Assembly (NCBI GenBank): GCA_016932815.1
Contig: JAFGCC010000017.1
Coordinates: 3,581-67,580, forward strand
DNA length: 64,000 bases
Reading direction: 5' to 3'
DNA from: Candidatus Micrarchaeota archaeon
Lineage (GTDB): Archaea; Micrarchaeota; Micrarchaeia; Anstonellales; Bilamarchaeaceae
Shown: in pieces, positions 9,617 to 64,000 of the stretch
How the letters are laid out: each line of letters opens with the position of its first letter
Numbering within the stretch: the first letter of the stretch is position 1
Position numbers and translations under genes: made by a program
The notes under the pieces: model-generated
Told to the model about the DNA's origin: nothing
Databases searched by the model: none
The model's input: only the letters and a program-made list of their open reading frames with translations

Positions 9617-9792
9617 AATAGGTAGGGATTTAGAGTGATAGCATATATAAATCTCACGCTCATAGCCGGAAGCTTTCTGGGATTTTCCGGATGGAGCCCA
9701 TCTTCCGGTTTTCGTGTTCTTCTAGCACGGCAGGCTGGCGCAGTCAGTTCGTTTTTTAACGCTAATCCGCAATATCCCTATGAGGCAGGAAA

Positions 9793-17935: not shown

Positions 17936-18004
17936 ACCTCTGGTAATGTAGGTTTCTATTCTTGCTTCAAAAGGTATTTAAAAGGTTGCAGGATATTCCA
18001 CTTC

Positions 18005-18439
18005 ATGGAGGAGATAACCAAGAGCCTCATATTCGCATTCCTGCTCCTATTAATCCTCTACTTATTCGGAACGCTCGTCTACCACAACCTGGAAGGCTGG
18101 AGCTGGGTGGACTGCCTCTACTTCATGACCGCGACGTTCACAACCGTCGGGTATGGGGACCTTGTCCCAACAAGCGACGCGGCGAAAATCTTCACCGTAT
18201 TCTTTATGTGGACCGGGATTTCAATCGGCTTCTACATGATATACACGATTTCCAAGTACCGCGAGGAGAAAATAGACCACCCGTTCCTCTCGTTCATCGG
18301 AAGGATTACCGACCGGGATCCCCGCAAGTCCCACAAGAGGATTCCCATGGACATGAAGCGCGTAGTGTATCCCGCGTATACCGGCACCACGGTCCTGGGG
18401 AAAACCCGCGCGCCTAAGAAGTATAAAAAGAAGCAGTAA
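18005..18439 (+). CDS. two-TM potassium channel
   Basis: Selectivity filter 'TTVGYGD' between two hydrophobic helices; TATA-like 'gtatttaaaagg' upstream. Confidence 0.8.
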   Translation: MEEITKSLIFAFLLLLILYLFGTLVYHNLEGWSWVDCLYFMTATFTTVGYGDLVPTSDAAKIFTVFFMWTGISIGFYMIYTISKYREEKIDHPFLSFIGRITDRDPRKSHKRIPMDMKRVVYPAYTGTTVLGKTRAPKKYKKKQ

Positions 18440-28510: not shown

Positions 28511-29743
28511 TTATCTTCCCAGTTCCATCCGTATCCTCTTGTAGAGGTTGTCCTTGATAGTCTTCACAAGGAAGGAGTTCAGTTTCGAATCGTCCCTTTT
28601 GCGAGCCAGTTTGGTGAGTAAGAGGTACTCCTCTTTGGTATTCGCATAGATGTTCATCAGCGGAAAACCATTGTTCATTAGTACGTAATTCCAGATGAGC
28701 CTCGTTGTTCTGCTGTTCCCATCATCAAACGGGTGAATATGCTGGAATTCATTGTGCACGAATGTCGCAAATTCAACGATTTCTGCAATTCCATGGCCGC
28801 GCGAGTTGAAATCGTTTATCCTTTTGACCAGTACGTCCAGTTTGGGAAGAATCTCGGAGAAATGGGCCACTTTATACGCAAGGTTTCCGCGTATTGATAC
28901 ATCGGATGCCCTGATTCCTTCTTTTACCCCCAGGTTGTGGATTACATTCCTGTGAAGGTCCAGAATGAACTCAATGCTGAGGGGTTCGCTGATGTTGGAA
29001 ACCAGTTGGTTGATTGCATTGTAATAGTTCTTTACTTCGTTTGCTTCCCTGAGTTTTTTATCCTCTGGTACAATGTCCTCTAAAACCAGTTCCCTGGTTT
29101 CATCCAGCGTGAAGGTGTTGCCCTCAAGCTGGGTGGATGCGGAAGCGAATTCGATTCTCAGTTCCTCTTCAACATCTCCTAGCAGGAGATTGCGCTCAGT
29201 TTCTTCCACTTTTTTGAGCAGCTTTTTTATCTCTCCATAGTCCTCTTTTGCCATGCCGCCCTTACTTTCTTTTGTTCTGGGTTTCTCCCCAAAGAAGCTG
29301 AGGACTTCCTGCAGTATGGGGTCCCTTATGAATTTTATTTTCAATGGCTTTTTTGACGTTATCAGCGCCAGGTTTATGCGGTTGAGGTACGTTAGGTATT
29401 TCCTTGCTGTCTTGTAGCTTATGCCTTTGAAGTCCTTCAGGAACACTTCCTCTTTTGCCATGCCTTTTTTTAGTATCTTGGATAGCTCTACTGACAGAAA
29501 AATATTGTAATTTATCCCCCTGCCCCTACAGAATTTCATTATGTTAAAAACATTCCATGTTTTCGGGTTTTCCCTGTTTGGCTGGTATTCCCCTTTTTCT
29601 CTTTCTACTAGGCCTTCCCCTTCGAGTTCCTTCAAACGCTGGCGCGTTGATGATGGGCTTGAACCGATTTCCTCTGCAATGCGTTTGAGCTTGCTCTTTT
29701 TGAGGTTGAATAGGGCGAATAGGGCGTCCCATTTGCTTTTCAT
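28511..29743 (-). CDS. Fic/Doc-family protein with N-terminal winged-helix domain
   Basis: Fic motif variant 'HPFDDGNSRTTRLI' (canonical HPFx[DE]GNGRxxR with G->S); N-terminal 'SSPSSTRQRLKELEGEGLVEREKG' wHTH-like. Confidence 0.75.
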   Translation of the reverse strand: MKSKWDALFALFNLKKSKLKRIAEEIGSSPSSTRQRLKELEGEGLVEREKGEYQPNRENPKTWNVFNIMKFCRGRGINYNIFLSVELSKILKKGMAKEEVFLKDFKGISYKTARKYLTYLNRINLALITSKKPLKIKFIRDPILQEVLSFFGEKPRTKESKGGMAKEDYGEIKKLLKKVEETERNLLLGDVEEELRIEFASASTQLEGNTFTLDETRELVLEDIVPEDKKLREANEVKNYYNAINQLVSNISEPLSIEFILDLHRNVIHNLGVKEGIRASDVSIRGNLAYKVAHFSEILPKLDVLVKRINDFNSRGHGIAEIVEFATFVHNEFQHIHPFDDGNSRTTRLIWNYVLMNNGFPLMNIYANTKEEYLLLTKLARKRDDSKLNSFLVKTIKDNLYKRIRMELGR

Positions 29744-29763
29744 GTTTTTGCTTAGGCTCTAAA

Positions 29764-29803
29764 TGTTTATAAATATTCCTATATTAGCTCATTTATAAAT
29801 AAA
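29764..29803. promoter_or_regulatory. AT-rich divergent promoter region with two TATA-like elements
   Basis: 'tttataaata' at 29766-29775 and again at 29792-29801 between divergently oriented Fic gene and MBL gene. Confidence 0.4.
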
Positions 29804-29964
29804 TATTTACTTCTTTTCCTTTATTGGAGAGAAAATAAAGATTTTCCGTTATTCAGCGTGCAGAACTCATAGGTGAAACAATCGCAGGATTGCTATTGCC
29901 TAAATCTTTGGGATTCATGATGTGAGCGTATCAAACTTATTAATGTTGCCGAAGATAATAAGCC

Positions 29965-30729
29965 ATGAAACTGACCTTCTTGGGAACAGGCGGCGGCAGG
30001 ATAAACCTGATAAAGCAAATCCGCGCAACCGGCGGAATCTGCATCTCCGGGCCAAAGAACATACACATCGACCCAGGCCCCGGAGCCTTAGTTCGCATGA
30101 GGAACAAGGGAATGGACCCGCTCAAGACCGACATAATGGTCGTAACCCACTCGCACATTGACCACATAGGGGACGCAGGCGTCCTAATAGAAGGGATGAG
30201 CCACTACGCGCTCAAAAAGAAGGGCACGCTGATAGCATCCGAAGACGCCCTAGGTGGGGAGATAAAGGGGCAGAAGATAAGCGGGTTCCACCTCTCCCGC
30301 CTTGAAACTGTGGTGAGGGCGAAGCCCGGGGAAACATTTGAGTTCGAAGGGGGGAAAATCAGCTTCAAAAAGGCAGTCCACGACGATTTCCCCGCATTCG
30401 GCTTCGTATTGGAAATGGGCGGGAAAAAGATAGGATACACAGGAGATACCGAATACTTTGAGGAAATGCCCGAAGAATACGCGGGCTGCGACCTCCTAAT
30501 AATCAACGTGATGAAGCCCTTTGCAGACGAGTACAAGGGGCATTTGACAGCAGAAGACGCCTCGAAACTCATAGGGAGGGTGCAGCCCAAGCTCGCAATC
30601 CTTACCCACATGGGCCTCAAGATGCTCCGCTACCCCGCAGAAAAGCGCGCATCCGAAGTGGAAGCCGAAACAGGCGTAAGGGTAATTGCGGCAGAAGACG
30701 GGATGGAAATTGGGGAATCGGAATTCTAG
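29965..30729 (+). CDS. MBL-fold metallo-hydrolase
   Basis: 'VVTHSHIDHIGDAG' metal-binding motif. Confidence 0.75.
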   Translation: MKLTFLGTGGGRINLIKQIRATGGICISGPKNIHIDPGPGALVRMRNKGMDPLKTDIMVVTHSHIDHIGDAGVLIEGMSHYALKKKGTLIASEDALGGEIKGQKISGFHLSRLETVVRAKPGETFEFEGGKISFKKAVHDDFPAFGFVLEMGGKKIGYTGDTEYFEEMPEEYAGCDLLIINVMKPFADEYKGHLTAEDASKLIGRVQPKLAILTHMGLKMLRYPAEKRASEVEAETGVRVIAAEDGMEIGESEF

Positions 30730-44349: not shown

Positions 44350-45354
44350 TCAAACCTTCATTTTCCGTATTTTTATTCCCGCCTGCCTGAATAAATTCTC
44401 AGGGGCTTCGGTAATAGGGTAATCCGCGTTGTAGATTACTTCGGTTATTCCCGCGTTTATTATCATTCTCGTGCAGTATAGGCAGGGGACGAAAGTGCAG
44501 TACATGACTCCCCCCTTGAGGCTTATCCCGTGGTAGGCTGCCTGCACTATTGCGTTTTCTTCTCCGTGTGCGCAGTAGCACTCATCGAGCTTGGAGCCGG
44601 ATTTCGCAAAGGAGTTGCATCTTGGGCACCCGCCTTCGTTGCAGTTTTTGGTGCCTCTCGGAGTCCCGTTGTATCCGGTGGAGATTATCCTCTTATCCTT
44701 TACGATTATTGCGGCAACCTTCCTTTTCATGCAGTTGCTCCTTGAGGCGACCTCCCTTGCGATGTTCATGAAGTATTCGTCCCAGCTAGGGCGCTCGTCC
44801 TTGAACTCAGTTGAGAATTCGGATAGGAGGTGGCCGATTTTTTCTTCTAAGCTCTCCATAGAGGAGTCGTTTATGAGCTTCCTATCTGCAACCTCGAATG
44901 CGTCTTTTAGGCTCTGTTTCGTTTTTTCCTCGTTTTTCAATTCCAGTTCCTCTATTTTCGTGAATGCTTCGAGGGTTTTGGGGTCGCTCTCCCTGCCCCG
45001 CTCCTTCATCCTCTCAAAGCGGGTTTCCGCAGGCGCGGTAACGTAAATTATGAATGAGTTATTGAGGCTCTTTATTTTCTTTGCCTCCGCCTCGTTCCTA
45101 ATTGAGTCTATTGCGTAGTTTCTGTCTTTTCCCAATTTTTCTATCGTTTTTTCTGCAAGTGCGCTTGGGCCGAGCTTTTCCCTCAACTCGTTTCCCTTTT
45201 CAATGAGGTTTGCGCGGGTTACCTCTTTTCCTTCTGCTGCAAGCTCTTCCCTTATTACATCCGATAATGAGAGGCATTCAAATCCCTTTGCCTTGAGGCA
45301 TTCTGCAACGGTTCCTTTCCCAGCGCAATTTTCACCCGTAAGCCCTATGATCAT
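44350..45354 (-). CDS. fusion protein: N-terminal P-loop nucleotide kinase-like domain + C-terminal dCMP/cytidine deaminase domain
   Basis: N-term 'MIIGLTGENCAGKGTV' P-loop; C-term deaminase zinc motifs 'CAHGEENAI' and 'PCLYCTRMI'. Confidence 0.7.
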   Translation of the reverse strand: MIIGLTGENCAGKGTVAECLKAKGFECLSLSDVIREELAAEGKEVTRANLIEKGNELREKLGPSALAEKTIEKLGKDRNYAIDSIRNEAEAKKIKSLNNSFIIYVTAPAETRFERMKERGRESDPKTLEAFTKIEELELKNEEKTKQSLKDAFEVADRKLINDSSMESLEEKIGHLLSEFSTEFKDERPSWDEYFMNIAREVASRSNCMKRKVAAIIVKDKRIISTGYNGTPRGTKNCNEGGCPRCNSFAKSGSKLDECYCAHGEENAIVQAAYHGISLKGGVMYCTFVPCLYCTRMIINAGITEVIYNADYPITEAPENLFRQAGIKIRKMKV

Positions 45355-45445
45355 GCTTCCACCCAGCCACAGGGCAGGATATATCTGCCAACATTTTAAT
45401 CTTTGTTGCCTTTCCTCCGGATTTTCTCTTTAATCGGGCAAAATC

Positions 45446-46207
45446 ATGCAAAACAATAAAAAAACCCATAATCATATGTTTATCCATTGGTGGATTGGCA
45501 TGGAAGGAAAGCGAAGGTCCCGCGGTGGCGGTCAACGGAATTCCGGCTCGGTTCCGGTGAAGGTGGAAGAGGGAATCGCCTCTAAAATTCCGGAACCGGT
45601 GGAACGTTCTGAGAATGGGAAAATGGATGCCGTTCCGCAGGTTGAAACTCCTACTTATAGCATGGGCGAATTAGGTCAATATCTCGATAATGCTAAGCCT
45701 TACATCGTTACTCCTTCATATACGAATCCTCCAAGGGAGGACCTCGGTGGAGTTTCGGACTACCTAACCAAGAACTACAAAGTGCGTGTAAATCTTACCA
45801 AAGATGACATCAGCTCCGTGGAAATTCTAGACAAAACTGGGTTGATGATTACAGGTATTGGAGTTCTTGGGAAACCTGAAGAACTGACTATAATGGCTAT
45901 TGATTTCGGAGAGAACAATCCGCTAATCAAGGGGGAGGCTTTATTCTTTGCTACGCCAGAGGGGGTAAGCATGTATTTCTTCGACAAATCTACTGGTGAG
46001 TTCTCCCATGGATTAGCTAATCTATATGGGGAGGGCCTGTCCCGCGGACCCACGAAGGTAGGATTGGACATCACTAAGGAAAGCATCGCACTGCTTGTTA
46101 TCCCCGATGCTGGCAATACTGCTGCTCAAGTGGAGATAGGGTTGGTCAATAACTCTGAATATAAGATGGGATATTCATATACTGGAATCTTTGGAGTAAA
46201 TAGGTAA
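45446..46207 (+). CDS. hypothetical protein A (cassette copy 1); compositionally atypical
   Basis: 253 aa; core homologous to 49565..50428 ('AIDFGENNPLIKGEALFFATPEG' vs 'AIDLGKDNPVVQGELLVFATPQS'; '...TGIFGVNR' vs '...TAIFGLTRPP'); N-terminal 'SVPVKVEEG'. Confidence 0.6.
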   Translation: MQNNKKTHNHMFIHWWIGMEGKRRSRGGGQRNSGSVPVKVEEGIASKIPEPVERSENGKMDAVPQVETPTYSMGELGQYLDNAKPYIVTPSYTNPPREDLGGVSDYLTKNYKVRVNLTKDDISSVEILDKTGLMITGIGVLGKPEELTIMAIDFGENNPLIKGEALFFATPEGVSMYFFDKSTGEFSHGLANLYGEGLSRGPTKVGLDITKESIALLVIPDAGNTAAQVEIGLVNNSEYKMGYSYTGIFGVNR

Positions 46208-46230
46208 TATCTCTTCATGGTGTTGTTTTC

Positions 46231-47883
46231 ATGGCGCTCTCAGCAAGAAAAAAGCAAGGTGGGGTGGGGGAACAAACTAAGACCTCCGACAATCCGGTTA
46301 GATTGCTTGAGAATGTAAAAGCAGCAACCGGAGAGGACCTAAACGAAGCACAAATCCTAAATGATGCACAGCTTTGGGAACAATACCTCAATCCCTCACA
46401 AGAACGCATCGAGGAAGAAAAGAGCAAATTATATTCCAACCTTGCGGATGCAGGATTTTCCACCGAAGATGCGAGTAGGATATCAGAACAATATGGGCGC
46501 CTGCGCGCAAAAGCGGCAAAAGGGTCTCTGAGCAATGAAGAGCTGAGCGCTCTCTCACAGATTGCAGGTGTCGCAAAGGAGGCAAAAGAATCTGCTGCAA
46601 ACACCTCCGAAGAACGAGCAACAGCACTAGTTTCCCTATGGTCCCAAGCACAGTCAAAAACGGCGGACACAAGCTACTACGATTCAGAAGCAATAAAGAT
46701 GCGGGACATCTTCTATGCGATGCTAACTGAAAGCAACCCGAACCAGCAGAAAATAAACGAGCTGGCAAAGAACGACGAAAGCGTCCGCAGCGTGTTCATG
46801 ATGGACGCTTCCTTTGCAAGGGAATTATACTCCAAGGGGACCTCCGCAGACAAGGTGTGGCAAGCCCTAATACAAAGGCAACAGGAAACCACAACCGCAT
46901 TCATGAAAGATGGCGCGAACAGTAAGCTCCTGCATGACGCGGAAATTGAAGACCTTCGCGCAGTCCTGGGAGAACAGCGCAACGATGCAAACCAGAGGAT
47001 TGGTTATATTGAAGCGGGAGATTACGCCTCCCTTGGCAAGATGGACGAAATTAACCGGATGTATTCAAACGACGTAGTGCTGCGCATGCAGAACAAGCTC
47101 GGCCTAGCAAGCGAGTCGGGGAATTTCACCGACTTCCAGATGGCGCAGATGCAGTCCGTATTGGCAGATGTCGCACTTATAATGTCAAATGCCAGCCCGC
47201 TTGGGGCGGTTGAAGAAGACTCCTCTGCGGAAGTGGGAATAGCAACATTGGATTCATTCATAAACGAGCAGCAGAGGGCAATGGACGAAACGCAGACCCT
47301 GCAGTCGCTAGACGAGCAAGTCTCAGAACTAATGGCATTGGCAAGGGAAACTGTGTCCGGTGGAGTGCTAACCGAAGAAGCGCAGGAGAAGCTGGGAGAG
47401 CTTGGGCTTCCAATGGGTGCCAATAGCGCGGATGCCGAGAAATTCGTAAGGGGGGCAAGGGAACGCGCGAACGAAGAGATATCGCGGGTGCAGGAATTAA
47501 GGAGCGTCCAGAATGGCGGCGCATACGAGGTTTCCGCATTCTACTCCGAAGAGCGCGCCCTAGAAACAATTGATTCGGTAAAGAGCATAATCCGCGAAGC
47601 GCCCACAGAATTCTCGATTCTTGCCGCAGAGGAATTCAAGGGGGATGAACTAATAAACATCGGGACGGTTGAAGAGGTTCTTGGGCAAGCGGATTTCGGG
47701 AATGCCAAATCCCCCGAAACAGTCGTCTTAACTGCCCTTAGCAATCCCAACGACTCTGGGATGCGCGAGAAAATGGAGCAGGTGCTCTCAAACCCATTCA
47801 ACGTGGGGATACGGGAAGCGCTGCTCGAAGCTTATGCGCGCGCAGCTTCAGAACTCTCGCAGAAGCGCATCTCCGCAGGGTAG
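46231..47883 (+). CDS. hypothetical acidic alpha-helical protein B (cassette copy 1)
   Basis: 550 aa; homologous along its length to 50480..52186 (e.g. C-termini 'NPFNVGIREALLEAYARAASEL' vs 'NPLNVGIRAALLEAYARAVTEL', 'RVQELR' in both). Confidence 0.6.
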   Translation: MALSARKKQGGVGEQTKTSDNPVRLLENVKAATGEDLNEAQILNDAQLWEQYLNPSQERIEEEKSKLYSNLADAGFSTEDASRISEQYGRLRAKAAKGSLSNEELSALSQIAGVAKEAKESAANTSEERATALVSLWSQAQSKTADTSYYDSEAIKMRDIFYAMLTESNPNQQKINELAKNDESVRSVFMMDASFARELYSKGTSADKVWQALIQRQQETTTAFMKDGANSKLLHDAEIEDLRAVLGEQRNDANQRIGYIEAGDYASLGKMDEINRMYSNDVVLRMQNKLGLASESGNFTDFQMAQMQSVLADVALIMSNASPLGAVEEDSSAEVGIATLDSFINEQQRAMDETQTLQSLDEQVSELMALARETVSGGVLTEEAQEKLGELGLPMGANSADAEKFVRGARERANEEISRVQELRSVQNGGAYEVSAFYSEERALETIDSVKSIIREAPTEFSILAAEEFKGDELINIGTVEEVLGQADFGNAKSPETVVLTALSNPNDSGMREKMEQVLSNPFNVGIREALLEAYARAASELSQKRISAG

Positions 47884-47968
47884 CCGTGACCTAAGTAACC
47901 CTTATTGTTACCCTCTTGGGCAAACAAATAAAAAACAGAAGAATGATATTGCTCATCGAGTGGATTAG

Positions 47969-49468
47969 ATGGCAGGAAAGCTCAAGGACCGCCCTCAGGA
48001 TGAGAATAAAGCTACTGCTGTTCCGGTTAAACTTGAATCCGAGGGAGCGTTAGGCCAGACACCGGAGCCTTCAGTTCCGGTAAAAGTCGAGAACGAGGAT
48101 ATAGAAAACCTGGTCCGCGCCCGTGTAAATAGTGTCCTCTCGGAAAATCCTGGGATGCGCTGGGAATCCGCTGTGCGTATGGCTACAGTTGAATGTAAAA
48201 TTAAGCTTGCGCAGATAAAGAACCTTCAGGTTACTGATAAGTTTAGCGAGGCTGAGAAGAGTTCCCAGATGGAGCATCTCACTAAGATGATTGATGCCCT
48301 CAATTCCGTGCCAGAATTTGCCCATACAAAATCACCAGTTCCCAAAAAGGCTTCTTTAGGACATCACTTTGAATACGTGACTTTCGCAGATCCTTCTCTC
48401 CTAGAACAGGATATTGCGACTGCAGAACGGCTTAGAATATCCCGCCAACCCTTTGTAGGGGTGCAATCTCCAGATGCGCTTGGCAGATTCATTTCAAAGC
48501 CCATTGAATGGCGCTATCCAAGATTTGGCAATTTTCAGCTTGATATTGTTGAATCAAAACCTGACAAAACGCATTTCCGCATTGGTTTTCCGGGTGGAGA
48601 GAAGGATGTTGCCTTCTCTGTTCCTCTTGAGCAGGTGGACGTGCTTGCGTTTAACTCAACGAAAGACACGCCTTTTAGAGTTACCGGGTGTGTGCTCAGG
48701 GGGAAGGACACACTATTCATCGCGCTGGAAACCCCTTCTGGCATTGTGGTGAAATCCTTGGTAATAGACCACGTGCGCAACGGAGCCAGAAGCATCGGGT
48801 TTGGAGTTACCAAGAAAGAAGGAACCCTCCTAGTTACAATTTCTCCGAAAAAATTATACGAGGGAAATTTCGTATACAGGTTGTCTTTTGGGCCTAATGG
48901 CGCCTCAACAGAGTATTACCGCTACACGAAGGATGTCCCTTCCGACACCAGAGTTAAAGAAGTGGGGTCTGGGGGCAAGCGGGAATTCGGTTTGTTCCGT
49001 CAAGAATTTGATTGCCTTTCCGAGTTGAGCCAATTTCAGATTTCAGATTTGGCAAAGACACTAGACTTGGCAGGTTACCAGTATGCTGATGCTATGAGCA
49101 TTATGGATTCAATTGTTGAGGAAGGGCGCGCATCTTACACAATAGCAAGAGCAGGAGGCGATAATCCAATGAATGCCAGAAATGTTGCGAGAGAAGCACA
49201 AACGAAACTTCTCATAAGCGTCTATAATTCATTAGAGCCTTCTTACCAAAAAAGATTCGAATCCGAAGCTATGCTTTTTCTGAGACAGAACGAAATCGCC
49301 GCGCGCATAACCCGGTTGGATGAAACATATTCCGCGCTTTTGGGATTGGATACCCTGTATCTCTCGAGTGAAGAGGACCAGAGGGAAGCGGTGTCCAAAT
49401 ACAATTTAATGGCCCCTCATGAAGCGGACGAATTTTTTTCCAGATTTAGTGGTTTTGGCACAAAATGA
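47969..49468 (+). CDS. hypothetical protein C (unique, between cassette copies); compositionally atypical
   Basis: 499 aa; N-terminal tandem 'AVPVKLESE' and 'SVPVKVENE' motifs matching N-terminus of protein A. Confidence 0.6.
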   Translation: MAGKLKDRPQDENKATAVPVKLESEGALGQTPEPSVPVKVENEDIENLVRARVNSVLSENPGMRWESAVRMATVECKIKLAQIKNLQVTDKFSEAEKSSQMEHLTKMIDALNSVPEFAHTKSPVPKKASLGHHFEYVTFADPSLLEQDIATAERLRISRQPFVGVQSPDALGRFISKPIEWRYPRFGNFQLDIVESKPDKTHFRIGFPGGEKDVAFSVPLEQVDVLAFNSTKDTPFRVTGCVLRGKDTLFIALETPSGIVVKSLVIDHVRNGARSIGFGVTKKEGTLLVTISPKKLYEGNFVYRLSFGPNGASTEYYRYTKDVPSDTRVKEVGSGGKREFGLFRQEFDCLSELSQFQISDLAKTLDLAGYQYADAMSIMDSIVEEGRASYTIARAGGDNPMNARNVAREAQTKLLISVYNSLEPSYQKRFESEAMLFLRQNEIAARITRLDETYSALLGLDTLYLSSEEDQREAVSKYNLMAPHEADEFFSRFSGFGTK

Positions 49469-49564
49469 CCTGCGAACAGGAATATGCCCTAAAAACCACT
49501 TTTTCGGGCTAAAGCATAAGTTTATATATAAAGTTTCCCCTAATCTTAGCATACAGGTGTCCAT

Positions 49565-50428
49565 ATGGCGAGGGTTTCAAAACTAGAATCCAAGGGCGAA
49601 GCGCCCCAGGTTTCCCAGGGCAAAAGAGCACCATTCAAACTTGCAAGCAGGCTCTTAGAGAAGCTTACCAAGCGTTCCGTAGAGAAAGGGACCTCGCTGA
49701 GGGAAGAAGCCAGATTGCCATCCGGGCCTACGGAGAGGCGAAAATTCCTGAAAATACTCGGGGGTGCCGCCGGGGCAGCCGTTTTACTAGGCCCTTCAGT
49801 GCTCAAGGCGAATGAGAAGGCCGCCAAAGCATCTTCCAACCAAGCTGAGGTGGACTCGGTAATTGATATCCGGGATATTATGCCCTATATCGACAATGCC
49901 AAGAAGTATGAAGTTCCCCTTAGCTCAGGCCAGAAGGTAAACGCTTTCCAAACGCTCTACAAGACTAAAGAGCACCAGTTCATCGTGACGCGTGGGGAGA
50001 CTAGGGGAATCGACATCAAAGTGATAAAAGGAGATGGGGTCGTTGGAGGCGCTGCTTTTCTCGGAGATCATCTAGACGAGTTGAACATCCTCGCTATCGA
50101 TCTTGGGAAAGACAATCCCGTAGTCCAGGGAGAACTTCTGGTTTTTGCGACTCCCCAGAGCGTAGGGTTGGTATATTGCAAGAAGCAGGATAACACTTAT
50201 CTATCCGGAGCCGTCAACTTGTACGGGAAAGGTTTGTCCAGGGGCAGTGCAAAACTAGGCGTTGATTTTGATGAAGAAACAATTGCGATAATGGTTGTGC
50301 CGGACAAGGGGGACAGGATAGCGCAGGTGCAATTGCCATTTGTAGATGGCGGGGAATACAAGGTCGGTAACTTCTATACTGCGATATTCGGTTTGACGCG
50401 GCCCCCTACCAGTCTTGCAAGTCTTTGA
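49565..50428 (+). CDS. hypothetical protein A' (cassette copy 2) with twin-arginine signal peptide
   Basis: 'ERRKFLKILGGAAGAAVLLGPSVLKANEKAAKA' Tat-type signal; core homologous to protein A. Confidence 0.6.
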   Translation: MARVSKLESKGEAPQVSQGKRAPFKLASRLLEKLTKRSVEKGTSLREEARLPSGPTERRKFLKILGGAAGAAVLLGPSVLKANEKAAKASSNQAEVDSVIDIRDIMPYIDNAKKYEVPLSSGQKVNAFQTLYKTKEHQFIVTRGETRGIDIKVIKGDGVVGGAAFLGDHLDELNILAIDLGKDNPVVQGELLVFATPQSVGLVYCKKQDNTYLSGAVNLYGKGLSRGSAKLGVDFDEETIAIMVVPDKGDRIAQVQLPFVDGGEYKVGNFYTAIFGLTRPPTSLASL

Positions 50429-50479
50429 CATTGCGGGTTGTTTTTAAATTTTGATTGAGAAAGTCTTTCGGGTGCATTC

Positions 50480-52186
50480 ATGGCGGGAATTAAAACAAAA
50501 AAGAAGCATGGCGCGAGTGATGAAGGAACAGTTTCGTCTGGATATTCCGAAAGCCTGGTGCTTAACAGTGTAGATCAGTTTACGAGAGGAGAGATGGACC
50601 TCCAGGCAATCCAGCAGGATGAAGGGAAGCGCCAGGAAATCCTAAAGCCCTCAGAAGAGCAACTGGAGAAAGAAGCAGAACAGGGAAAAGAACTCCTAAA
50701 AGATGCGGATTTCTCAAACTCGGAAGCTAGAAAGCTCGCAGATTCGTATGTTAAGCTGAGAATGGGAATGGCGCAGGGCCAGCCCACACAGGAAGAGGCA
50801 GCATCATTGTCCAAAATCTCCGCCGCCCGCGTTTTGTTGGCGCCCAAAGAGGGCGAAACGGATGAAGTGCGCGAGGAAGCCCGCAAGCAATGGGTGCAAA
50901 TGCAGGCTGAGGCAGTTGAAAACGGGCATTCGGATGTGCGCACTGTCCGCAACATGGATATTTTTTATGCAATAGCTACCTCGGAGGAAGTCTCTCCGAA
51001 GGCACTGCATAAACTTGCAAGGAAACATCATGGACTGAAGAACCTCTTTAGGAGGAGTGCTCGGCTCGCAAGGCACCTGCACGAAGATGGGGAGAACTAT
51101 CATGCGATGAGGGTGCGCCTCAACGAAGAGAGGCGCAACAGGTTCAGGGAACTCTGGAAAGACAGGGAAGTGCAGAAGGACCTAATGGCCGCAGGCTACA
51201 CCGAAAAGCGGGTGGAGGCAAGCATCCGCGCCCGCGAGGGGGCCGAGGAAGCAACCGAGATTGCATTGAGGAATGGGGACACCGAAAGGACCCAGGAACT
51301 TAACGAAAACCTGAAAGCCAACTCGGACAGCCCCGAGGGAATAATCCAGGGCACAGTGGAAATAATGGGGAGCGCAACTTACCTCAAAGACAACGAGCGC
51401 GCCAGCCTCCTAACCGCCCTGGAAGACGTTACCTCCCTGATGGCGGCGGCCAGCACCAGGCTGAGCGGGCTTGGGGAAGCCGAATCCCCGGCGGAAGCGG
51501 GAATGGAAGCATTGGACTCGTTTATAACAGAAGAGCAGAGGGCGCAGGACGAAACGAAGAACTGGGAGGAGCTAGACGAGCAGATAGACGAGCTCCTAAG
51601 CAAGAAGGCAAAGGAACTGGACGAGCAAACCCGGGAGGATTTGGGGGCATACCTGGTCCCGGAAGGCGCAAGCGCAAAAGAGGCGGCAGAATACTTAAAA
51701 GAGGCAAAAGAGCGCGCACAGGAGGAAACCGGGAGGGTGCAGGAACTAAGGACCCCGGAGAACTTCGTGCAGGACAAGGAGGGCAACTGGACGCTGGAGG
51801 AAGACACGCGCGAAGGCGCACAGTACCAGAAAATGCCCGCGTTCTACCCAGCAGAAAAGGCAGTAGAGATGATAAACGCCGCAAAGCCCATGATTGAGCA
51901 GTCCAAGGCGGAATTCTCCATACTAGCGGCAAGGGAGTTCGCAGGAGACGGCATAAGGCACCTTGGAACCGCAAGGGAGGTGCTCGAAATTGCCGATTTC
52001 GAAGATGAAGCCGCGCCCGAAACCGTGGTAATGCAGGCACTAGGCAACCCAGGAAACGAGGAGTTGAACAGGAAAATGGAGGAAGTGCTCGCAAACCCCC
52101 TGAATGTGGGAATACGGGCCGCACTCCTGGAAGCATACGCGAGGGCCGTCACCGAACTAGCTGAAAAGCGCGAGATGGCGGGATAG
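50480..52186 (+). CDS. hypothetical acidic alpha-helical protein B' (cassette copy 2)
   Basis: 568 aa; homolog of 46231..47883. Confidence 0.6.
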   Translation: MAGIKTKKKHGASDEGTVSSGYSESLVLNSVDQFTRGEMDLQAIQQDEGKRQEILKPSEEQLEKEAEQGKELLKDADFSNSEARKLADSYVKLRMGMAQGQPTQEEAASLSKISAARVLLAPKEGETDEVREEARKQWVQMQAEAVENGHSDVRTVRNMDIFYAIATSEEVSPKALHKLARKHHGLKNLFRRSARLARHLHEDGENYHAMRVRLNEERRNRFRELWKDREVQKDLMAAGYTEKRVEASIRAREGAEEATEIALRNGDTERTQELNENLKANSDSPEGIIQGTVEIMGSATYLKDNERASLLTALEDVTSLMAAASTRLSGLGEAESPAEAGMEALDSFITEEQRAQDETKNWEELDEQIDELLSKKAKELDEQTREDLGAYLVPEGASAKEAAEYLKEAKERAQEETGRVQELRTPENFVQDKEGNWTLEEDTREGAQYQKMPAFYPAEKAVEMINAAKPMIEQSKAEFSILAAREFAGDGIRHLGTAREVLEIADFEDEAAPETVVMQALGNPGNEELNRKMEEVLANPLNVGIRAALLEAYARAVTELAEKREMAG

Positions 52187-58186: not shown

Positions 58187-61100
58187 ATGAGTGAAGGTTG
58201 TGCAAAATCAGGATTACTTAGTTCCATTGCCATAATCCTACTACTCTTCCTATCCGGCAGCGCAGGCGTTTTCTGCCCCATAGAAAACGTGGACGCAAAC
58301 GGCACTTCCTGCAACTACCAGGTAATCCCGATACTAGTCCCAATTGAGGAAACCCTGCTTACTACCGACGACTTCGTGCAGGGCCCAGCTGAAATCGGCC
58401 AGCCTGTTAGGTGGCGGAGGATCTTCACCCCATCTCGCACCTCCAACTCCATGGAGATTGAGCTGCACGCAAACGCATTCGACATCGCACTCAACGCCCC
58501 GGTCAACGGCACCCACTTCTGGCTCTCCCCATCTTCCTGGTCGATTGAGCGCTATGCGTCTTCCCCCAGGGGCGACAAGGGAATTTTCAGGATGATTTTC
58601 AATGCGGGCCTCCCTTCCGGGAGCACAGGCGAAGTGGAAGCCGAATACTACACCGAAGCCCCCGCAATAAACGTGACGCCCCTCTCCCACGACAAAATCG
58701 CAGTGAGGGTTTCTTCCCAGACCCACTACCAGAACATCCTAGCATACGCGGACGTCCCGGACACCCAATACCGCGAGGGCGGCATCTCGCTATACCTCAC
58801 GACCAACGGCACCTTTGAGCAGGCGCAAATAACGAACTATTCTGACACCAACGGGAACGGGTTCATAGACCGCATATACTGGATAGTCCCCCACCTTAGC
58901 GAGCAGACCTACGAGATAGTCCTAATAAGCGGCGCAGAGCACCTGGATGAAAACCGCACGTTCGTAGAAGACGCCTACGAGTACGTGCGCACCAGGGGCG
59001 ACAACCTCTCAATCCAAATCCCGGATGGCCACTACCTGCGCGCGGCATTCGAGCGCCCCCTCAATTCTTCTGCCGACATAACGATTTACGCTTCAAGCAA
59101 TTCCTCCAACGCCTCTGTTGCGGTCTATGAAAGAAACGAGTCCACCCTGCTTGCCGATTTCGGAACCATAAGCCAATACGGCAAATACCAGGTGTTCCTC
59201 ACCCTCCTAAATGGGACGCAGGACACTTTCGACTTGCGGGTGTCCGGAGGGGAAGTCGTTTTCGATTACGTCACCGACCCGCCCTACAACGACACGATGA
59301 TGTCGCTCAACCCCAACTTCCGCTGGGTGCTGGATGGGGATTTCACAGACGAGATGGGCAATCTGGACGGAACTCCGGGGCAGGCACCCGATTACGTTGC
59401 CACGATAATCCCCCACAGCGAGCATCCCCAGTGCGGAGATTTCACGCCCAACGACGAGATGCACGTAGCCGACGACCCCCTCATAAACACGGGAAGCGGC
59501 TACGTGGGGGAAGTGCGCTCAATCTCGGTATGGTTCATAGCCGACACAATCCCCACCAACGACGGGAACGTAATCTGGGGGGAGGGAGGGGGAAGCAACT
59601 CCCTCTCAGTCTATACTTATGATGATGGCGGAACCACGAAAGTCTACTGTGCCGCAGTAGAAGGCGGAAACGAAGACTGGGTGGAATACCCAATAACCGC
59701 CGGAGAACTCTACCACCTAGGCTGTACCTACGACTTCCCCAATGATGAAATAAACATGTACCTAAACGGAACGCTCGTTGACACCGACAACTCGCTCTCA
59801 ATAGGGGCTTCTCTTAATTCCCACGGAGCCAACAACGCCCTGGGCGGCCAGGACGGGAACACCGACAACCACCTGGGAACCCAGATGAGCGACAACTTCG
59901 ATGGGAGGATTGCGGATTTCGCCTACTGGAGCGGAGGAACCGTCCTGAGCGCGGAGAACATGAGCGCCATCTTCAATTCCGGAATGTACGGCTCGCCCAG
60001 CGGGGAAGTGGAATGGAACGTGTCCTCGCTCGACCTTGGCACGGCTTACACTTCCGAACCCCCCACGGGAGCGGCGAGCATAACCTCAAATGGCACAAAC
60101 AGCAACGCCACAGTCTCATGCGTGTATGGGAACTGCACCAAGATTGCGGACAGCTGGATAGACGGCACGAACATGTCCGATTCCCAGTCATTCGATGTAA
60201 ACTTCACCTGCAACTCCACAACCGCAGGCAGTTTCTCCGCATTGTTCAACGCAACCTCCGATGAAGACGCAACGCCCAGCCAGATAAACGTTTCATGCAC
60301 GCTGATGCAGCCTTCAGTTGAATGGAACATGTCGGAGCTGGAGATTGGAACCGCAGAGCCGGATGAGGGTTCGCTCCATGGCTCAGCCAACATAACCTCC
60401 AACGGCACAAACAGCAACGTCGCACTATCCTGCGTGTATGGAAACTGCACAGAAATCACCGAAGACTGGCTTGACACTACCGACATGCACGATGGCGAAA
60501 CCTTCATGGTGAATTTCACCTGCTCCAATTCCTCTATCGGGAATTTCTCGGCAATCTTCAACCTCACTTCCGATTGGGATGCCTCCCCGGAGCAGGTAAA
60601 CGTGACCTGCACTATTGACTATTATCCCTCAATCCACATAATATCCGCAGTCCACCTAGATGAAAACAGGCTATTCATAGAAGACGTTTACGAGAAGGTA
60701 AAAACGATAGATTCCCTGAGGGCGAGAATCCCGCCCACACACTACCTAAGAGTCGTTTTCGACAGGGAGCTTGACGCTTCCAAGGACATAACGATTTACG
60801 CGGCGCACCCCCCGGGCCCCGGCACCCCATACGTTGACGTTTATGAGGAAGGGGGTTCCACGGCCATCGCCTCTTTCGGGGAAATCTCGCAGTATGGGAA
60901 ATACCAGACGTTCCTAACCCTGCTAAATGGCACCCAGGACACTTTTGATTTGCGGGTAATAGGCGCGCAAGTCGGTTTCGATTACGTCACCGACCCCCCA
61001 CAGTGGGATTATAATTTCAGCAAATGCAAAAACATCACCCTCACAAACGTGGGCACCACCAACCTTACCGATTTCACCATTTACGTGAACGTGAGCTACG

Positions 61101-64000
61101 ATTCGGACATGCGCTCGGACTACGGGGACATCCGCTTCGTGGATTCTCCCTGCGACAGCGGAGGCAACCCCTTCAACTACGAAATAGAATACACCGATGC
61201 AAACCACGCAGACACCTGGGTGCGCCTCGATTACCTCCCTCCCGAAGGCAGGATAATTTCCATGTATTATGGAAACGACAGCACGGCCTCAAGCCAGAAC
61301 CCCGCAACCGCCTGGAACTACACCTACACGAGCATCTACCACCTAAACCACACAAGCGGAAATGCAATAGACACAATGGGGAACCATTCCGCCACGGAGG
61401 TGGTGGACCCGGACTCCAACATGGACGTCCTTGGAATGTTCGGGCGGGCGGATTATTTTGATGGCAGCGACTACCTTGACAACAACCCCAAGTGGTCGGT
61501 AACCGCCCCGTTTGCCTACGAAGCGTGGATACGCGCCGATACTTCCTCCTCCGACATGATAATCCTAGAAGACGGAGCGCAGGTGCAGGGTGCGGGAATC
61601 GGGGTAAGCTCTTCTGGCTACTTCGTTTTCGGAGGCTACTATTCATCCTCCTACCGCTCTGCCAATTCCACTGCCGCAGTAGACGACAACCAATGGCACT
61701 ACGTAGTGGGGGTAAACGAGCCTGGCTACAATATGCTAGCATACGTGGACGGAGTTCTCGTGGCGAACACCTCAGGCATTGCAGGCGGCCTCAACCCCGG
61801 CTCCAACGGGGCCGCAATAGCGTTTGTCAACAACATAGACTCCACGTTCCCTTCCGGAGGAACCTATTTCACCGGATACCTAGATGAAATCCGCGTCTCC
61901 ACAAACGTGCTGCGCACATCCGACTGGATAAACCAGACCTACCTGGCAGTCGTAAACCAGAGCGGCATCGTGGCTTTCGGGGCCGAGCAGGCCCGCGACG
62001 GCTCTGGGGCCTCGGTTTCCTGGAACGTGTCTTCGCTTGATTTGGGAGTTGGCGCGCAATCAGGCGGCCCAATTGCGGGTTCTGCGAACATAACCTCAAG
62101 CGGGACCAACAGCAACATCACAGTATCCTGCGATTCCGGCAACTGCTCAACTATCAGCGAAGACTGGATAGACAGCACCAACATGACTGATGGCCAGTCA
62201 TTCATTGCAAACTTTAGCTGCTCCAACTCAACAGCAGGGAATTTCTCGGCAACCTTCAACCTGAGTTCCGCGCAGGACACCTCAATTGAGCAGATAGTGG
62301 TAAACTGCACAATCGTCACTCCCCCCGGGATAACGATAAACTCGCCTTCGGGAATTCTCGCGGACGTTACCCCCGCCCTCAACATTACCCTTGACCAGGC
62401 TGCCGACACGCTCTGGTACAACGTGGATGGCGGGGCAAACTCCACAATCTGCACTTCCTGCGGCGGGGAGCAGGCAACGTTCCTCCACCTTGCAGAAGGC
62501 AGCTACACAATCCACGTGTATGCAAACAACACCGTAGGCCAGAATTACGAAAACTCTTCATTTACAGTAGACATGAATGGCAACTACTTTGACAGCTTCG
62601 AAGACAATTCGAGTGTGGAAACCTACGAAGGGGTAACCTACAACCCCGGGAACATAAGTTTCGAAGGCTCCGGCTCTTCCCCCCCGGATTCCTGGTGGGA
62701 TCCAAGCTTTTCGCGGTGCCGCAACATCACCGTAACAAACGTAGGCTCAAGCACCCTCACGAACTTCCCCCTGTATGTGAATGTGACCTACGATTCCGAC
62801 ATGAAAGCGGATTATTCGGACTTGCGCTTTGTGAATACTTCCTGCAACAACAACGGAAGCGCGCTTGATTTTGAAATAGAATACTCAAATGCCAGCCACG
62901 CGGCAACATGGGTGGAAATCCCCAGCCTCCCCGCGGGGGGCACCACGATTTCAGTCTACTACGGCAATTCCAGCGCATCCCCGGCCCACAACCCCTCAGG
63001 AGTCTGGGATTCCAACTACGCTGCAATCTACCACTTCAACCACACAACCGGGGCCCTTGCCGACACCAAGGGGGCATTCAACGTTCCGGATGGGATGTCC
63101 CCGGATTCCAACAAGGACGTAATGGGCGTAACCGGAAGGGCGGATTATTTTGATGGCGGGGATTATTTCGGCCCGCAGAGCTGGGACCTAGACGATACCG
63201 GAACGGGCTTTGCCTACTGCGCCTGGGTGCGCTTTAGCAGCACCAGCCTGATGGTGGTGGCTGAAGACGGGGCCTACGTAAGCGGGGCAGGGATAGGGAT
63301 GACCGGGGGCAACCTCCGCTTCGGGGTAAGCATATCCTCCACCCACTACCCAATAGACAGCACGAGCACTTACAACGACGATTCATGGCACTATATGTGC
63401 GGAGTTTCCACAGGGACCCAGACCCAGCTTTATGTGGACGGCGAACTGGATGGGCAGGAAACCCGCACCGCTGCAATAGGAACCGATGCTGGAGGAGTCG
63501 GCTACGGCCTAGGCGGGAGCGCCGGAAATGCGGTATCCGGAGATGGCAGCAGCAACTACTACTACACAGGCTACATGGACGAACTCTGGATGTCCTACAC
63601 CTCAAGGAGCGCCGACTGGATAAACCAGACCTACCAGGCAATAGCCAGCCAGGCTTCGATAGTAAGCATAGGGGGCGAGGAATCCTCCGCAGGCTCCTCT
63701 GGAGGCTCCGGCAATTTCACCTCATACTCGATAAACACGACCGGCCTAATAGGCAGCTTCTTGGATATAACCTGGAACGAAGTAGGAACGGATTCGACCA
63801 ACAACATCTCAGTGAAAATCAGCGTGGACAACGGCAACAACTATTATGCGGCAACCAACGGCTCAAGCTTATCCGGCTTCACGCCCGGAAGCGCCATAAT
63901 CTACCGCGCCATCTTCACAACCGACAGCGCGGCAACGATTGCATTAACCGACATGAACATCACATGGGCAAGCGAGGCGGTCTCATGGAACCAGTCCTCA
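58187..64000 (+). CDS. giant secreted/surface protein, 3'-truncated by window end (>1938 aa), with signal-peptide-like N-terminus, DUF2341-like and LamG/ConA-like lectin modules and internal repeats
   Basis: No stop in frame from 58187 to 64000 (ORF absent from track because unterminated); N-term 'LLSSIAIILLLFLSGSAGVF'; >60 N-x-S/T sequons; LamG-type signature 'YLDEIRVSTNVLRTSDWINQTY' / 'YMDELWMSYTSRSADWINQTY'; DUF2341-like 'CKNITLTNVG..NFTIYVNVSYDSDMRSDYGDIRFVD...YEIEY...WVRLDYLPPEGRIISMYYGN'. Confidence 0.75.
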   Translation, partial: MSEGCAKSGLLSSIAIILLLFLSGSAGVFCPIENVDANGTSCNYQVIPILVPIEETLLTTDDFVQGPAEIGQPVRWRRIFTPSRTSNSMEIELHANAFDIALNAPVNGTHFWLSPSSWSIERYASSPRGDKGIFRMIFNAGLPSGSTGEVEAEYYTEAPAINVTPLSHDKIAVRVSSQTHYQNILAYADVPDTQYREGGISLYLTTNGTFEQAQITNYSDTNGNGFIDRIYWIVPHLSEQTYEIVLISGAEHLDENRTFVEDAYEYVRTRGDNLSIQIPDGHYLRAAFERPLNSSADITIYASSNSSNASVAVYERNESTLLADFGTISQYGKYQVFLTLLNGTQDTFDLRVSGGEVVFDYVTDPPYNDTMMSLNPNFRWVLDGDFTDEMGNLDGTPGQAPDYVATIIPHSEHPQCGDFTPNDEMHVADDPLINTGSGYVGEVRSISVWFIADTIPTNDGNVIWGEGGGSNSLSVYTYDDGGTTKVYCAAVEGGNEDWVEYPITAGELYHLGCTYDFPNDEINMYLNGTLVDTDNSLSIGASLNSHGANNALGGQDGNTDNHLGTQMSDNFDGRIADFAYWSGGTVLSAENMSAIFNSGMYGSPSGEVEWNVSSLDLGTAYTSEPPTGAASITSNGTNSNATVSCVYGNCTKIADSWIDGTNMSDSQSFDVNFTCNSTTAGSFSALFNATSDEDATPSQINVSCTLMQPSVEWNMSELEIGTAEPDEGSLHGSANITSNGTNSNVALSCVYGNCTEITEDWLDTTDMHDGETFMVNFTCSNSSIGNFSAIFNLTSDWDASPEQVNVTCTIDYYPSIHIISAVHLDENRLFIEDVYEKVKTIDSLRARIPPTHYLRVVFDRELDASKDITIYAAHPPGPGTPYVDVYEEGGSTAIASFGEISQYGKYQTFLTLLNGTQDTFDLRVIGAQVGFDYVTDPPQWDYNFSKCKNITLTNVGTTNLTDFTIYVNVSYDSDMRSDYGDIRFVDSPCDSGGNPFNYEIEYTDANHADTWVRLDYLPPEGRIISMYYGNDSTASSQNPATAWNYTYTSIYHLNHTSGNAIDTMGNHSATEVVDPDSNMDVLGMFGRADYFDGSDYLDNNPKWSVTAPFAYEAWIRADTSSSDMIILEDGAQVQGAGIGVSSSGYFVFGGYYSSSYRSANSTAAVDDNQWHYVVGVNEPGYNMLAYVDGVLVANTSGIAGGLNPGSNGAAIAFVNNIDSTFPSGGTYFTGYLDEIRVSTNVLRTSDWINQTYLAVVNQSGIVAFGAEQARDGSGASVSWNVSSLDLGVGAQSGGPIAGSANITSSGTNSNITVSCDSGNCSTISEDWIDSTNMTDGQSFIANFSCSNSTAGNFSATFNLSSAQDTSIEQIVVNCTIVTPPGITINSPSGILADVTPALNITLDQAADTLWYNVDGGANSTICTSCGGEQATFLHLAEGSYTIHVYANNTVGQNYENSSFTVDMNGNYFDSFEDNSSVETYEGVTYNPGNISFEGSGSSPPDSWWDPSFSRCRNITVTNVGSSTLTNFPLYVNVTYDSDMKADYSDLRFVNTSCNNNGSALDFEIEYSNASHAATWVEIPSLPAGGTTISVYYGNSSASPAHNPSGVWDSNYAAIYHFNHTTGALADTKGAFNVPDGMSPDSNKDVMGVTGRADYFDGGDYFGPQSWDLDDTGTGFAYCAWVRFSSTSLMVVAEDGAYVSGAGIGMTGGNLRFGVSISSTHYPIDSTSTYNDDSWHYMCGVSTGTQTQLYVDGELDGQETRTAAIGTDAGGVGYGLGGSAGNAVSGDGSSNYYYTGYMDELWMSYTSRSADWINQTYQAIASQASIVSIGGEESSAGSSGGSGNFTSYSINTTGLIGSFLDITWNEVGTDSTNNISVKISVDNGNNYYAATNGSSLSGFTPGSAIIYRAIFTTDSAATIALTDMNITWASEAVSWNQSS
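58938..59283 (+). repeat. intragenic repeat R1 copy a (about 115 aa 'HLDENRTFVEDAYE...TFDLRVSGGEVVFDYVTDPP')
   Basis: Same module recurs at 60652-61000 with high nucleotide identity at its 3' end ('caggacacttt(c/t)ga(c/t)ttgcgggt...ttcgattacgtcaccgacc'). Confidence 0.7.
60005..60303 (+). repeat. intragenic Cys-rich repeat R2 copy a (about 100 aa)
   Basis: 'EWNVSSLDLG...NITSNGTNSNATVSCVYGNCTKIADSWIDGTNMSD..FDVNFTCNSTTAGSFSALFN..INVSCTL'. Confidence 0.7.
60316..60614 (+). repeat. intragenic Cys-rich repeat R2 copy b
   Basis: 'EWNMSELEIG...NITSNGTNSNVALSCVYGNCTEITEDWLDTTDMHD..FMVNFTCSNSSIGNFSAIFN..VNVTCTI'. Confidence 0.7.
60652..61000 (+). repeat. intragenic repeat R1 copy b
   Basis: 'HLDENRLFIEDVYEKV...TFDLRVIGAQVGFDYVTDPP'. 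Confidence 0.7.
61000..61960 (+). repeat. intragenic module R3 copy a: DUF2341-like + LamG-like
   Basis: 'WDYNFSKCKNITLTNVGTTNLTDFTIYVNV...' through '...DEIRVSTNVLRTSDWINQTYLAV'. Confidence 0.65.
62035..62320 (+). repeat. intragenic Cys-rich repeat R2 copy c
   Basis: 'SWNVSSLDLG...NITSSGTNSNITVSCDSGNCSTISEDWIDSTNMTD..FIANFSCSNSTAGNFSATFN..IVVNCTI'. Confidence 0.7.
62695..63650 (+). repeat. intragenic module R3 copy b: DUF2341-like + LamG-like
   Basis: 'WWDPSFSRCRNITVTNVGSSTLTNFPLYVNV...' through '...DELWMSYTSRSADWINQTYQAI'. Confidence 0.65.

Follow-up and report, generated by a model that had tools for sequence, protein, structure and literature searches.

Does the shift in third-position codon usage in part of an archaeal gene cassette record the arrival of foreign DNA, or does it belong to the genes themselves? 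The cassette lies in a stretch of 64,000 nucleotides from a Candidatus Micrarchaeota archaeon (assembly GCA_016932815.1, contig JAFGCC010000017.1, positions 3,581 to 67,580), which as a whole is called the window here. The segment 45446-50428 of the window had been singled out in a preliminary description as a compositional island consisting of genes A, C and A' and the 5' part of gene B, with lateral acquisition or a distinct expression regime as possible explanations. We consider it rather probable that the compositional trough reflects the codon usage characteristic of a rare, fast-evolving two-gene family and that the bias is gene-specific and maintained, not a residue of unameliorated foreign DNA.

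The flagged segment involves five open reading frames (ORFs) on one strand, with the NCBI locus tags JW721_037xx, which represent three tandem mosaic copies of a gene pair: A-B, the fusion gene C and A'-B'. They are flanked upstream by ScpA, ScpB and a kinase-dCMP-deaminase fusion on the minus strand and downstream by hisS and then a Na+/H+ exchanger gene. The cassette genes are as follows:

45500-46207, + strand: gene A, 235 aa; the ORF extends 5' to 45446
46231-47883, + strand: gene B, 550 aa
47969-49468, + strand: gene C, 499 aa
49565-50428, + strand: gene A', 287 aa
50480-52186, + strand: gene B', 568 aa

The products of A and A' are 39% identical over 176 aligned amino acids, and those of B and B' share 34% identity along their entire length. 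The start of A, previously set at 45446, was moved to 45500 on the basis of a conserved leader and of the start of the orthologue; the Logan gene call begins at the equivalent of 45500, and 45446 falls within the leader.

Codon usage of the cassette genes

The reference set consisted of 45 other genes of the window, i.e. of 64 kb of the genome. Their GC content at third codon positions (GC3) was 0.635±0.041 with a minimum of 0.552, and the share of T at these positions (T3) was 0.135±0.05. Genes A (GC3 0.457, z −4.4) and C (GC3 0.452, z −4.5) fell outside the range of the 45 genes. Their codon-likelihood z-scores were −9.8 and −11.0, respectively, whereas credible genes elsewhere in the window scored from about −3.5 to +4.6 against the codon usage of the window. 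The deviation was milder in A' (GC3 z −2.1, T3 0.22, codon-likelihood z −5.2) and in B (−1.9, 0.14 and −1.9, respectively), and B' was normal (−0.1, 0.10 and +1.6). GC1 and GC2 of A and C were ordinary, so that the deviation sits at synonymous sites, and the chief shift was toward T-ending codons (T3 0.32 in A and 0.29 in C); the abundance of A/T-ending codons such as tta, aat, gct and act in A had been correctly noticed. GC at four-fold sites was 0.42 in A and 0.48 in C, as compared with 0.45 in non-coding DNA and 0.64 in the four-fold reference.

The GC contents of about 45, 47 and 50% estimated by eye for A, C and A' agree with the measured 45.4, 46.5 and 50.8% (46.5% for A when counted from its true start at 45500). 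In contrast, the flanking genes do not reach the 56-58% ascribed to them: the values are 53.0% for hisS, 48.0% for the dCMP-deaminase fusion and 55.1% for B'. The bulk GC content of 45446-50428 is only modestly low (48.4% vs. 52.1% in the window), which places the segment about 2 standard deviations (SD) below the mean and in the bottom 3.8% of windows of the same length; the 26.3-31.3 kb region is as low. The island thus stands as a strong deviation in A and C and a mild one in A' and the 5' part of B, but it is split into two troughs. The first (about 45085-46680) extends from the first 90 codons of the deaminase gene through A and B codons 1-150; the low composition of the 5' part of B had been recognized before (GC3 0.40-0.45 in the first 150 or so codons). 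The second (about 47884-51080) covers C, A' and B' codons 1-200. The two are separated by B codons 150-550, which are near native. The first 90 codons of the deaminase gene (45085-45354, minus strand), which is divergent from A, have a GC3 of 0.45-0.47 vs. 0.60-0.70 in the remainder of the gene; the trough therefore crosses a gene boundary.

The dinucleotide signature of the cassette region is native: its delta* values of 20-63 compare with 56±26 for the window. The tetranucleotide correlation of 0.75-0.78 (window 0.855±0.085), about 1.2 SD low, is not outlying either. As had been noted, no tRNA, integrase or repeat boundary was detected by scans of the region (the only tRNA of the window is at 9541-9617).

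The gene pair in related organisms

The comparison covered nine related contigs, which come from seven other organisms. The Logan contigs L005 and L003 of the data set SRR24270834 together read CBS, ScpA, ScpB, deaminase (minus strand), A, B, A', B', hisS and Na/H exchanger, i.e. the order of the window minus C. The window protein A is 74% identical to its SRR24270834 orthologue, with a synonymous divergence (dS) of 1.49 and a ratio of nonsynonymous to synonymous divergence (dN/dS) of 0.108; the respective values for B are 72%, 1.35 and 0.125. Housekeeping genes in the same comparison are 77-94% identical, with dS mostly 0.7-1.0 and dN/dS 0.05-0.19. A-B thus evolves at two to three times the rate of its neighbours, and does so under purifying selection. 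Since an orthologous A-B pair occupies the same site in L005 and L003, A-B can be placed at this position already in the common ancestor with the SRR24270834 relative, and it predates the split. The orthologous A gene shows the same bias as that of the window: its T3 is 0.34 and its GC3 0.49, whereas its flanks have 0.09 and 0.72, respectively. A and the 5' part of B make up half of the flagged signal, and lateral acquisition is therefore unsupported for that half, where syntenic orthologues share the bias; it is plausible for C and for the centre of A'-B', by reason of module phylogeny and not of composition.

The border between L005 and L003 falls within the 5' end of A', where the contigs overlap by exactly 28 nt. 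The break resembles an assembly-graph branch and may reflect strain heterogeneity at this junction.

A'-B' orthologues adjoin hisS at the same place in three relatives. One of them, L002, has a single pair at the site, in the order dCMP-deaminase, a 66-aa ORF, A°, B° and hisS. The 66-aa ORF (L002 3757-3957) lies at the position of A-B and is weakly similar to the N-terminus of A (QRNS.VP.K); it may be what is left of a deleted A-B pair, although the alignment is weak. In L006, L007, L009 and L010 the pair was found in other, unrelated neighbourhoods.

The bias accompanied the family in all of these surroundings. The GC3 of the A-type gene was the lowest or nearly the lowest at L002, L004, L006, L007, L008, L009 and L010, and it was below that of the flanks in seven of seven related organisms and in five neighbourhoods, as it usually was for the N-terminal domains of the B-type genes. 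The T3 of A-type genes was 0.29-0.37 compared with 0.09-0.22 in the flanks (window, SRR24270834, L002, L006, L007 and L009), and L010 behaves likewise; A' is an exception, with 0.18-0.22 in the window and SRR24270834 genomes. Within the B-type genes, the N-terminal domain had a lower GC3 than the C-terminal domain in nine of ten cases, often by at least 0.2 (e.g. 0.325 vs. 0.558, 0.374 vs. 0.627 and 0.252 vs. 0.442). An anomaly which outlasts the saturation of synonymous sites, and does so in differing GC backgrounds, argues for a gene-specific equilibrium. Of the two explanations originally offered, a distinct expression regime is thus the one that fits best, as the bias persists past synonymous saturation.

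Modules of the A-type and B-type proteins

The family is very rare. Word-indexed searches of 5.8 billion proteins returned three non-self homologues for B', one for A' and none for C, and an exhaustive HMMER profile search of 1.84 billion representative proteins gave 12 matches at E<=1e-3. With the B alignment, neither the viral contigs nor the GTDB species genomes (scanned twice) nor a first metagenome scan gave a match; a second metagenome scan yielded one locus, L010. Searches of the five cassette proteins against Pfam, PHROGs, PADLOC and NCBIfam gave nothing beyond a near-threshold match to a twin-arginine translocation (Tat) signal, sequence-profile searches of the PDB with the cassette proteins gave no match, and the gene family is undescribed in the literature searched. 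The AlphaFold2 (AF2) model of A' is all-beta with a predicted local distance difference test (pLDDT) score of 60-87, and that of B' scores 70-89 in the C-terminal domain. Foldseek comparison of both models with the PDB gave nothing at E<=1e-3, the best matches of A' being generic beta-propeller or PCNA-like fragments with template modelling (TM) scores <=0.3.

At every recovered locus an A-type gene precedes a B-type gene, which starts 23-60 nt downstream. The A-type protein contains a beta domain of about 170 aa in which only Gly and Pro are invariant. The B-type protein (460-580 aa) is all-helical, has a net charge of about −36 and combines a variable N-terminal domain with a conserved C-terminal domain (Cdom) of about 240 aa. 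Since the two are always adjacent, are fused in C and have opposite net charges, A-type and B-type proteins probably act together. According to alignments and trees, there are two deep types of beta domain (types 1 and 2) and two of the B N-terminal domain (the long N1, and the short N2 with an AGYS motif). In the A-B pair, both in the window and in L005, beta type 1 is joined with N1. The signal-bearing A-type genes of relatives have beta type 2, and the B partner of the closer relatives is N2. The distant B proteins are not uniformly N2, as P0014 is of N1 type and P0015 is unassigned. The modules are arranged in the window as follows:

45355-45499, + strand: intergenic region between divergent genes, and type-1 leader of A, with an A-rich promoter-like element (CAATAAAAAAAC) and a GGTGG Shine-Dalgarno-like motif 5' of the ATG at 45500
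45500-46207, + strand: product of A, a short basic N-terminus (VPVKVE motif) followed by the type-1 beta domain
46231-47217, + strand: N-terminal helical domain of B, type N1, codons 1-329
47218-47883, + strand: Cdom of B (pair-1 clade), conserved; GC3 0.59 and T3 0.13, close to native
47884-47968, + strand: leader of C, by alignment a paralogue of the type-1 leader of A
47969-49468, + strand: gene C, with an A-like basic N-terminus (residues 1-125), type-2 beta domain (126-332) and N2 helical domain (353-491)
49511-49564, + strand: promoter and leader of A', with canonical archaeal TFB recognition element (BRE)/TATA (AAAGCATAAGTTTATATATAAAG) and an AGGTG Shine-Dalgarno-like motif
49565-49834, + strand: N-terminal region of A', a conserved basic segment, then the twin-arginine motif RRKFLK (58-63), a hydrophobic stretch and LKA/NE
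49835-50428, + strand: type-1 beta domain of A' (38% identity with A), the C-terminal tail of which is type-2-like (…SLASL); GC3 0.54
50480-51478, + strand: N-terminal domain of B', type N1, 24% identical to the N1 of B; GC3 0.48-0.63 in the first 200 or so codons
51479-52186, + strand: Cdom of B'; GC3 0.66 and T3 0.04, native composition

The leader of A is conserved in front of the A gene of L005 and has a paralogue in the region preceding C. No signal peptide was found in A. Gene C is an in-frame fusion: its residues 126-332 match the type-2 beta domain of relatives' A genes (blastp E 1e-11 to 1e-15) and its residues 353-491 the N2 domain of relatives' B genes (blastp E 1e-15 to 1e-17), and it stops exactly at the point where the Cdom would start. 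Neither a signal peptide nor a Cdom is present in C, and its N-terminus, like its leader, is paralogous to that of A. C retains all six of the Gly/Pro positions that are invariant in the beta domain, and its ORF is intact over 499 codons. No orthologue of C was detected: the protein search returned C alone, and the gene is absent from the otherwise collinear L005 and L003 locus and from the other relatives. Its modules are 26-31% identical to those of the relatives, which are 37-57% identical among themselves, and in the trees C lies outside the clade of close relatives.

The N-terminal region of A' is orthologous to that of the relatives. The relatives' A-type proteins and A' share a conserved basic N-terminus, two adjacent arginines (RR), a hydrophobic stretch and an AxA-like site; in A' these are ERRKFLK at residues 57-63, a hydrophobic stretch at 64-80 and then LKA/NE. 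RR is invariant in the seven A-type homologues, at an unusual distance from the N-terminus (40-57 residues), behind the conserved basic segment. The score of A' against TIGR01409 (16.4 bits) is just under the cutoff of 16.7, and TIGR02811 matches three of the seven A-type members (best E 3.4e-6). These features suggest that A' may be exported or membrane-anchored via a Tat-type signal. The BRE/TATA element and leader of A' (AAAGCATAAGTTTATATATAAAG…AGGTGTCCAT-ATG; window 49511-49564, L005 7349-7402, L002 about 4020-4075) are nearly identical in L005 and recognizable in L002. Such near-identity between organisms with near-saturated synonymous sites suggests that the promoter or 5' untranslated region of A' is under strong constraint. 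Between A' and B' (50429-50479), T-runs (GTTGTTTTTAAATTTTG) resemble an archaeal termination or attenuation signal within the presumed operon.

Relatives have orthologues of the B' Cdom, with identities of 74% (L003), 62% (L004) and 59% (L002). Judged from the alignments, A'-B' is chimeric, i.e. an orthologous promoter, signal region, C-terminal tail and Cdom surround a deeply divergent type-1 centre, and this centre diverges far more from the resident A-B than the A-B orthologues do from one another. Because C is a fusion of a beta and an N-terminal domain, and A'-B' has a divergent centre between orthologous ends, the modules can be regarded as shuffled or imported by recombination. In the distant clade, P0012 (L007, N2 type) and P0014 (N1 type; not located on any contig) share a Cdom with 71% identity, so that N-domain types recombine with, or are homogenized against, one Cdom in more than one lineage.

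Origin of the bias

The third positions of A and C, which resemble non-coding DNA, suggest little selection for C/G-ending codons. Weak selection for the preferred C/G-ending codons of the genome in fast-evolving modules would give the bias observed, and such weak codon selection would amount to a separate expression or translation regime for these genes. Repeated exchange of centre modules among related lineages possibly contributes. B' would act with A' as one functional unit, perhaps as its bound partner, and A and C would be signal-less paralogues. The proportion C/(C+T) was higher at conserved than at variable residues both in the flanks (0.78 vs. 0.69, p=0.03) and in A'+B' (0.75 vs. 0.59, p=0.006), and the most conserved module, the Cdom, is also the most native in composition.

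Several observations do not sit easily with a maintained, gene-specific bias. In A, C/(C+T) is 0.43 even at residues conserved in the orthologue, compared with 0.78 in the flanks; relaxed constraint at variable sites thus accounts for little of the bias. Although just 23 nt separate A from B, and the two are probably co-transcribed, their T3 values are 0.32 and 0.14, respectively. The bias is weak in A' of the SRR24270834 relative (GC3 0.64, T3 0.18), and the organisms compared lack phylogenetic independence. Beta type and N-domain type may co-vary simply because they adjoin on the DNA, and no fold or family match backs a function of the proteins or an interaction of A with B. A gene-specific expression or translation regime would nevertheless be the best available label for what the codon usage points to.

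We regard it as very unlikely that the whole of 45.4-50.4 kb is a recently acquired foreign island. The atypical GC3 and codon usage of A and C and the orphan status of the cassette proteins would be expected of such an island. However, A-B is syntenic and orthologous in a relative at near-saturated synonymous sites and has the same bias there, A'-B' orthologues lie beside hisS in three relatives, the dinucleotide signature is native, B' and the Cdom of B are native in composition, and mobility genes, tRNA and boundary repeats were not found in the cassette region. Import on a smaller scale deserves more weight, and we hold it as a tentative explanation, possible but not the favoured one: C and the centre of A'-B' (about 47.9-51.5 kb) may have arrived by homologous recombination with a divergent allele or paralogue of another Micrarchaeota lineage, and this source would explain part of their low GC3. 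The lack of C in the collinear L005 and L003 and the low identity of its modules to those of the relatives (26-31%, against 37-57% among the latter) fit this, as does A'-B', whose ends are orthologous (Cdom 74%) while its type-1 centre shares only 38% and 24% identity with the resident A-B. At the nucleotide level the pairs resemble each other only where the Cdom of B and B' begins and ends (the best repeats are 73-76% identical), and these edges are potential recombination junctions; the joining of N1- and N2-type domains to one Cdom in the distant clade (P0014 and P0012) is a parallel. On the other hand, no donor sequence was found in any of the collections searched, the loss of an old paralogue in the relatives or acceleration after duplication yields the same pattern, and composition cannot discriminate, as a low GC3 goes with the family wherever it occurs.

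The GC3 of A and C, which is close to non-coding GC, would also suit decaying, non-functional duplicates whose synonymous sites have drifted to an AT-richer mutational equilibrium, and C lacks a signal, a Cdom and an orthologue. This reading has very little probability in our view: the dN/dS of A is 0.108 and its leader and Shine-Dalgarno-like motif are conserved, and C has a conserved A-type leader, an intact frame of 499 codons and the six invariant Gly/Pro positions. An assembly or binning artefact, i.e. a chimeric contig, could be suspected because the source is a metagenome-assembled genome and related Logan contigs break inside the locus. We give it next to no credence, as the order A-B-C-A'-B'-hisS is reproduced exactly on L001, an independently assembled Logan contig of 14.7 kb, the genes of a second organism follow the same order except for C, and both flanks are collinear with those of relatives.

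A further reading, which we think improbable, is recombination-based module switching of an exported protein pair in DPANN archaea. The Tat signal region and TATA promoter of A' and the Cdom of B' would be fixed, while the beta domain of A' and the N-terminal domain of B' would be exchanged, the exchanged centre alternating between two ancient types. The signal-less A-B and C would then be a resident archive or by-products of swapping, and the lasting AT-richness of third positions would be a mark of the segment that is exchanged and diversifies.

Comparison with known systems

Variable loci of low GC content and atypical codon usage in otherwise native genomes are known from O-antigen and other surface polysaccharide clusters and from the C-terminal tips of Rhs proteins with their downstream ORFs. 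Similarly, the trough in the cassette is confined to variable modules, the Cdom of B and the signal region of A' being native, and the cassette occupies a fixed site between housekeeping genes at which the module types differ among relatives. Unlike in these loci, no known toxin, glycosyltransferase or Rhs/YD domain was matched in the cassette, the bias is family-wide across distant lineages and not strain-specific, and the conserved part of B is large and C-terminal.

Polymorphic toxin/immunity loci with orphan modules, such as cdiA-CT/cdiI of contact-dependent growth inhibition (CDI) and Rhs, offer another comparison. The cassette resembles them in its conserved trafficking N-terminus, its swappable C-terminal domain with an adjacent partner gene changing alongside, and the extra signal-less copies (A and C) nearby. 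It differs in that these copies lie upstream and have conserved leaders of their own, that the beta domain shows no evident catalytic motif and that the 550-aa partner has its own conserved domain. A recognisable toxin domain with catalytic residues and a small immunity gene are both lacking: there was no match in Pfam, NCBIfam or PADLOC, only Gly and Pro are invariant in the beta domain, and the partner has 460-580 aa. Nor does the cassette look like a silent-cassette locus of antigenic variation, in which donor copies are promoterless and nearly identical to the expression locus: the leaders of A and C are conserved and have Shine-Dalgarno-like motifs, A-B is under purifying selection, and the centres are only 24-38% identical to the resident copies, with the best repeats at 73-76%. 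A diversity-generating retroelement or repeat-mediated variation was dismissed because neither a reverse transcriptase nor a template/variable repeat pair was found, and a provirus because there was no PHROG match and no match among viral contigs.

Acquired genomic islands share with the cassette the atypical GC3 and codon usage and the orphan genes. In contrast to them, the cassette has no integrase, tRNA or direct repeat, its dinucleotide signature is native, and most of the segment is syntenic in relatives (A-B and A'-B' in SRR24270834, A°-B° in L002). The locus is a cautionary case: comparison with syntenic relatives showed its transfer-like trough in codon usage to be a stable trait specific to the family. 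Atypical-codon, fast-evolving modular loci are a known phenomenon; the archaeal gene family, which occurs in this organism and in related uncultured archaea, is very rare and uncharacterised.

Tat export of a signal-less partner in complex with a Tat substrate ("hitchhiking") has been described (PMC10924467), as have Tat-dependent archaeal surface fimbriae, the "tafi" (PMC11821415). The arrangement of A' and its homologues, with RR, a hydrophobic stretch and an AxA-like site, next to a B protein without a signal is like that of hitchhiking pairs, and by analogy B could be co-exported with A'. Unlike in these systems, no cofactor-binding, pilin or TasA-like domains were found, and the paralogues A and C are signal-less. 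The cassette represents a two-gene module in which one partner has a probable Tat signal, and which comes with two ancient centre types, an in-frame fusion and a chimeric copy. Its proteins are candidates for a role at the cell surface of DPANN archaea or in their contact with hosts, both little-known fields.

Other features of the window

The only real signature outlier in the window is the gene at 58-64 kb. This giant ORF (58187-64000, plus strand; >1938 aa) runs past the end of the window and has an N-terminal signal or transmembrane segment; because it is very rich in N-x-S/T sequons and has long internal repeats, it probably encodes a glycosylated surface protein. Its delta* of 113-137 (vs. 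56±26) and tetranucleotide correlation of 0.53-0.63 are the most deviating values in the window. The ORF at 17962-18417 (plus strand), with GC1 0.75, GC3 0.39 and a codon-usage z of −9.8, probably does not represent a gene in this frame, and no Rfam match was found at the site. A second low-GC gene, unrelated to the cassette, encodes a winged-helix helix-turn-helix (HTH) and Fic/DOC protein (28511-29743, minus strand; 44.4% GC), and the lowest bulk GC of the window (41.6%, 29001-30000) is at the site of this gene.

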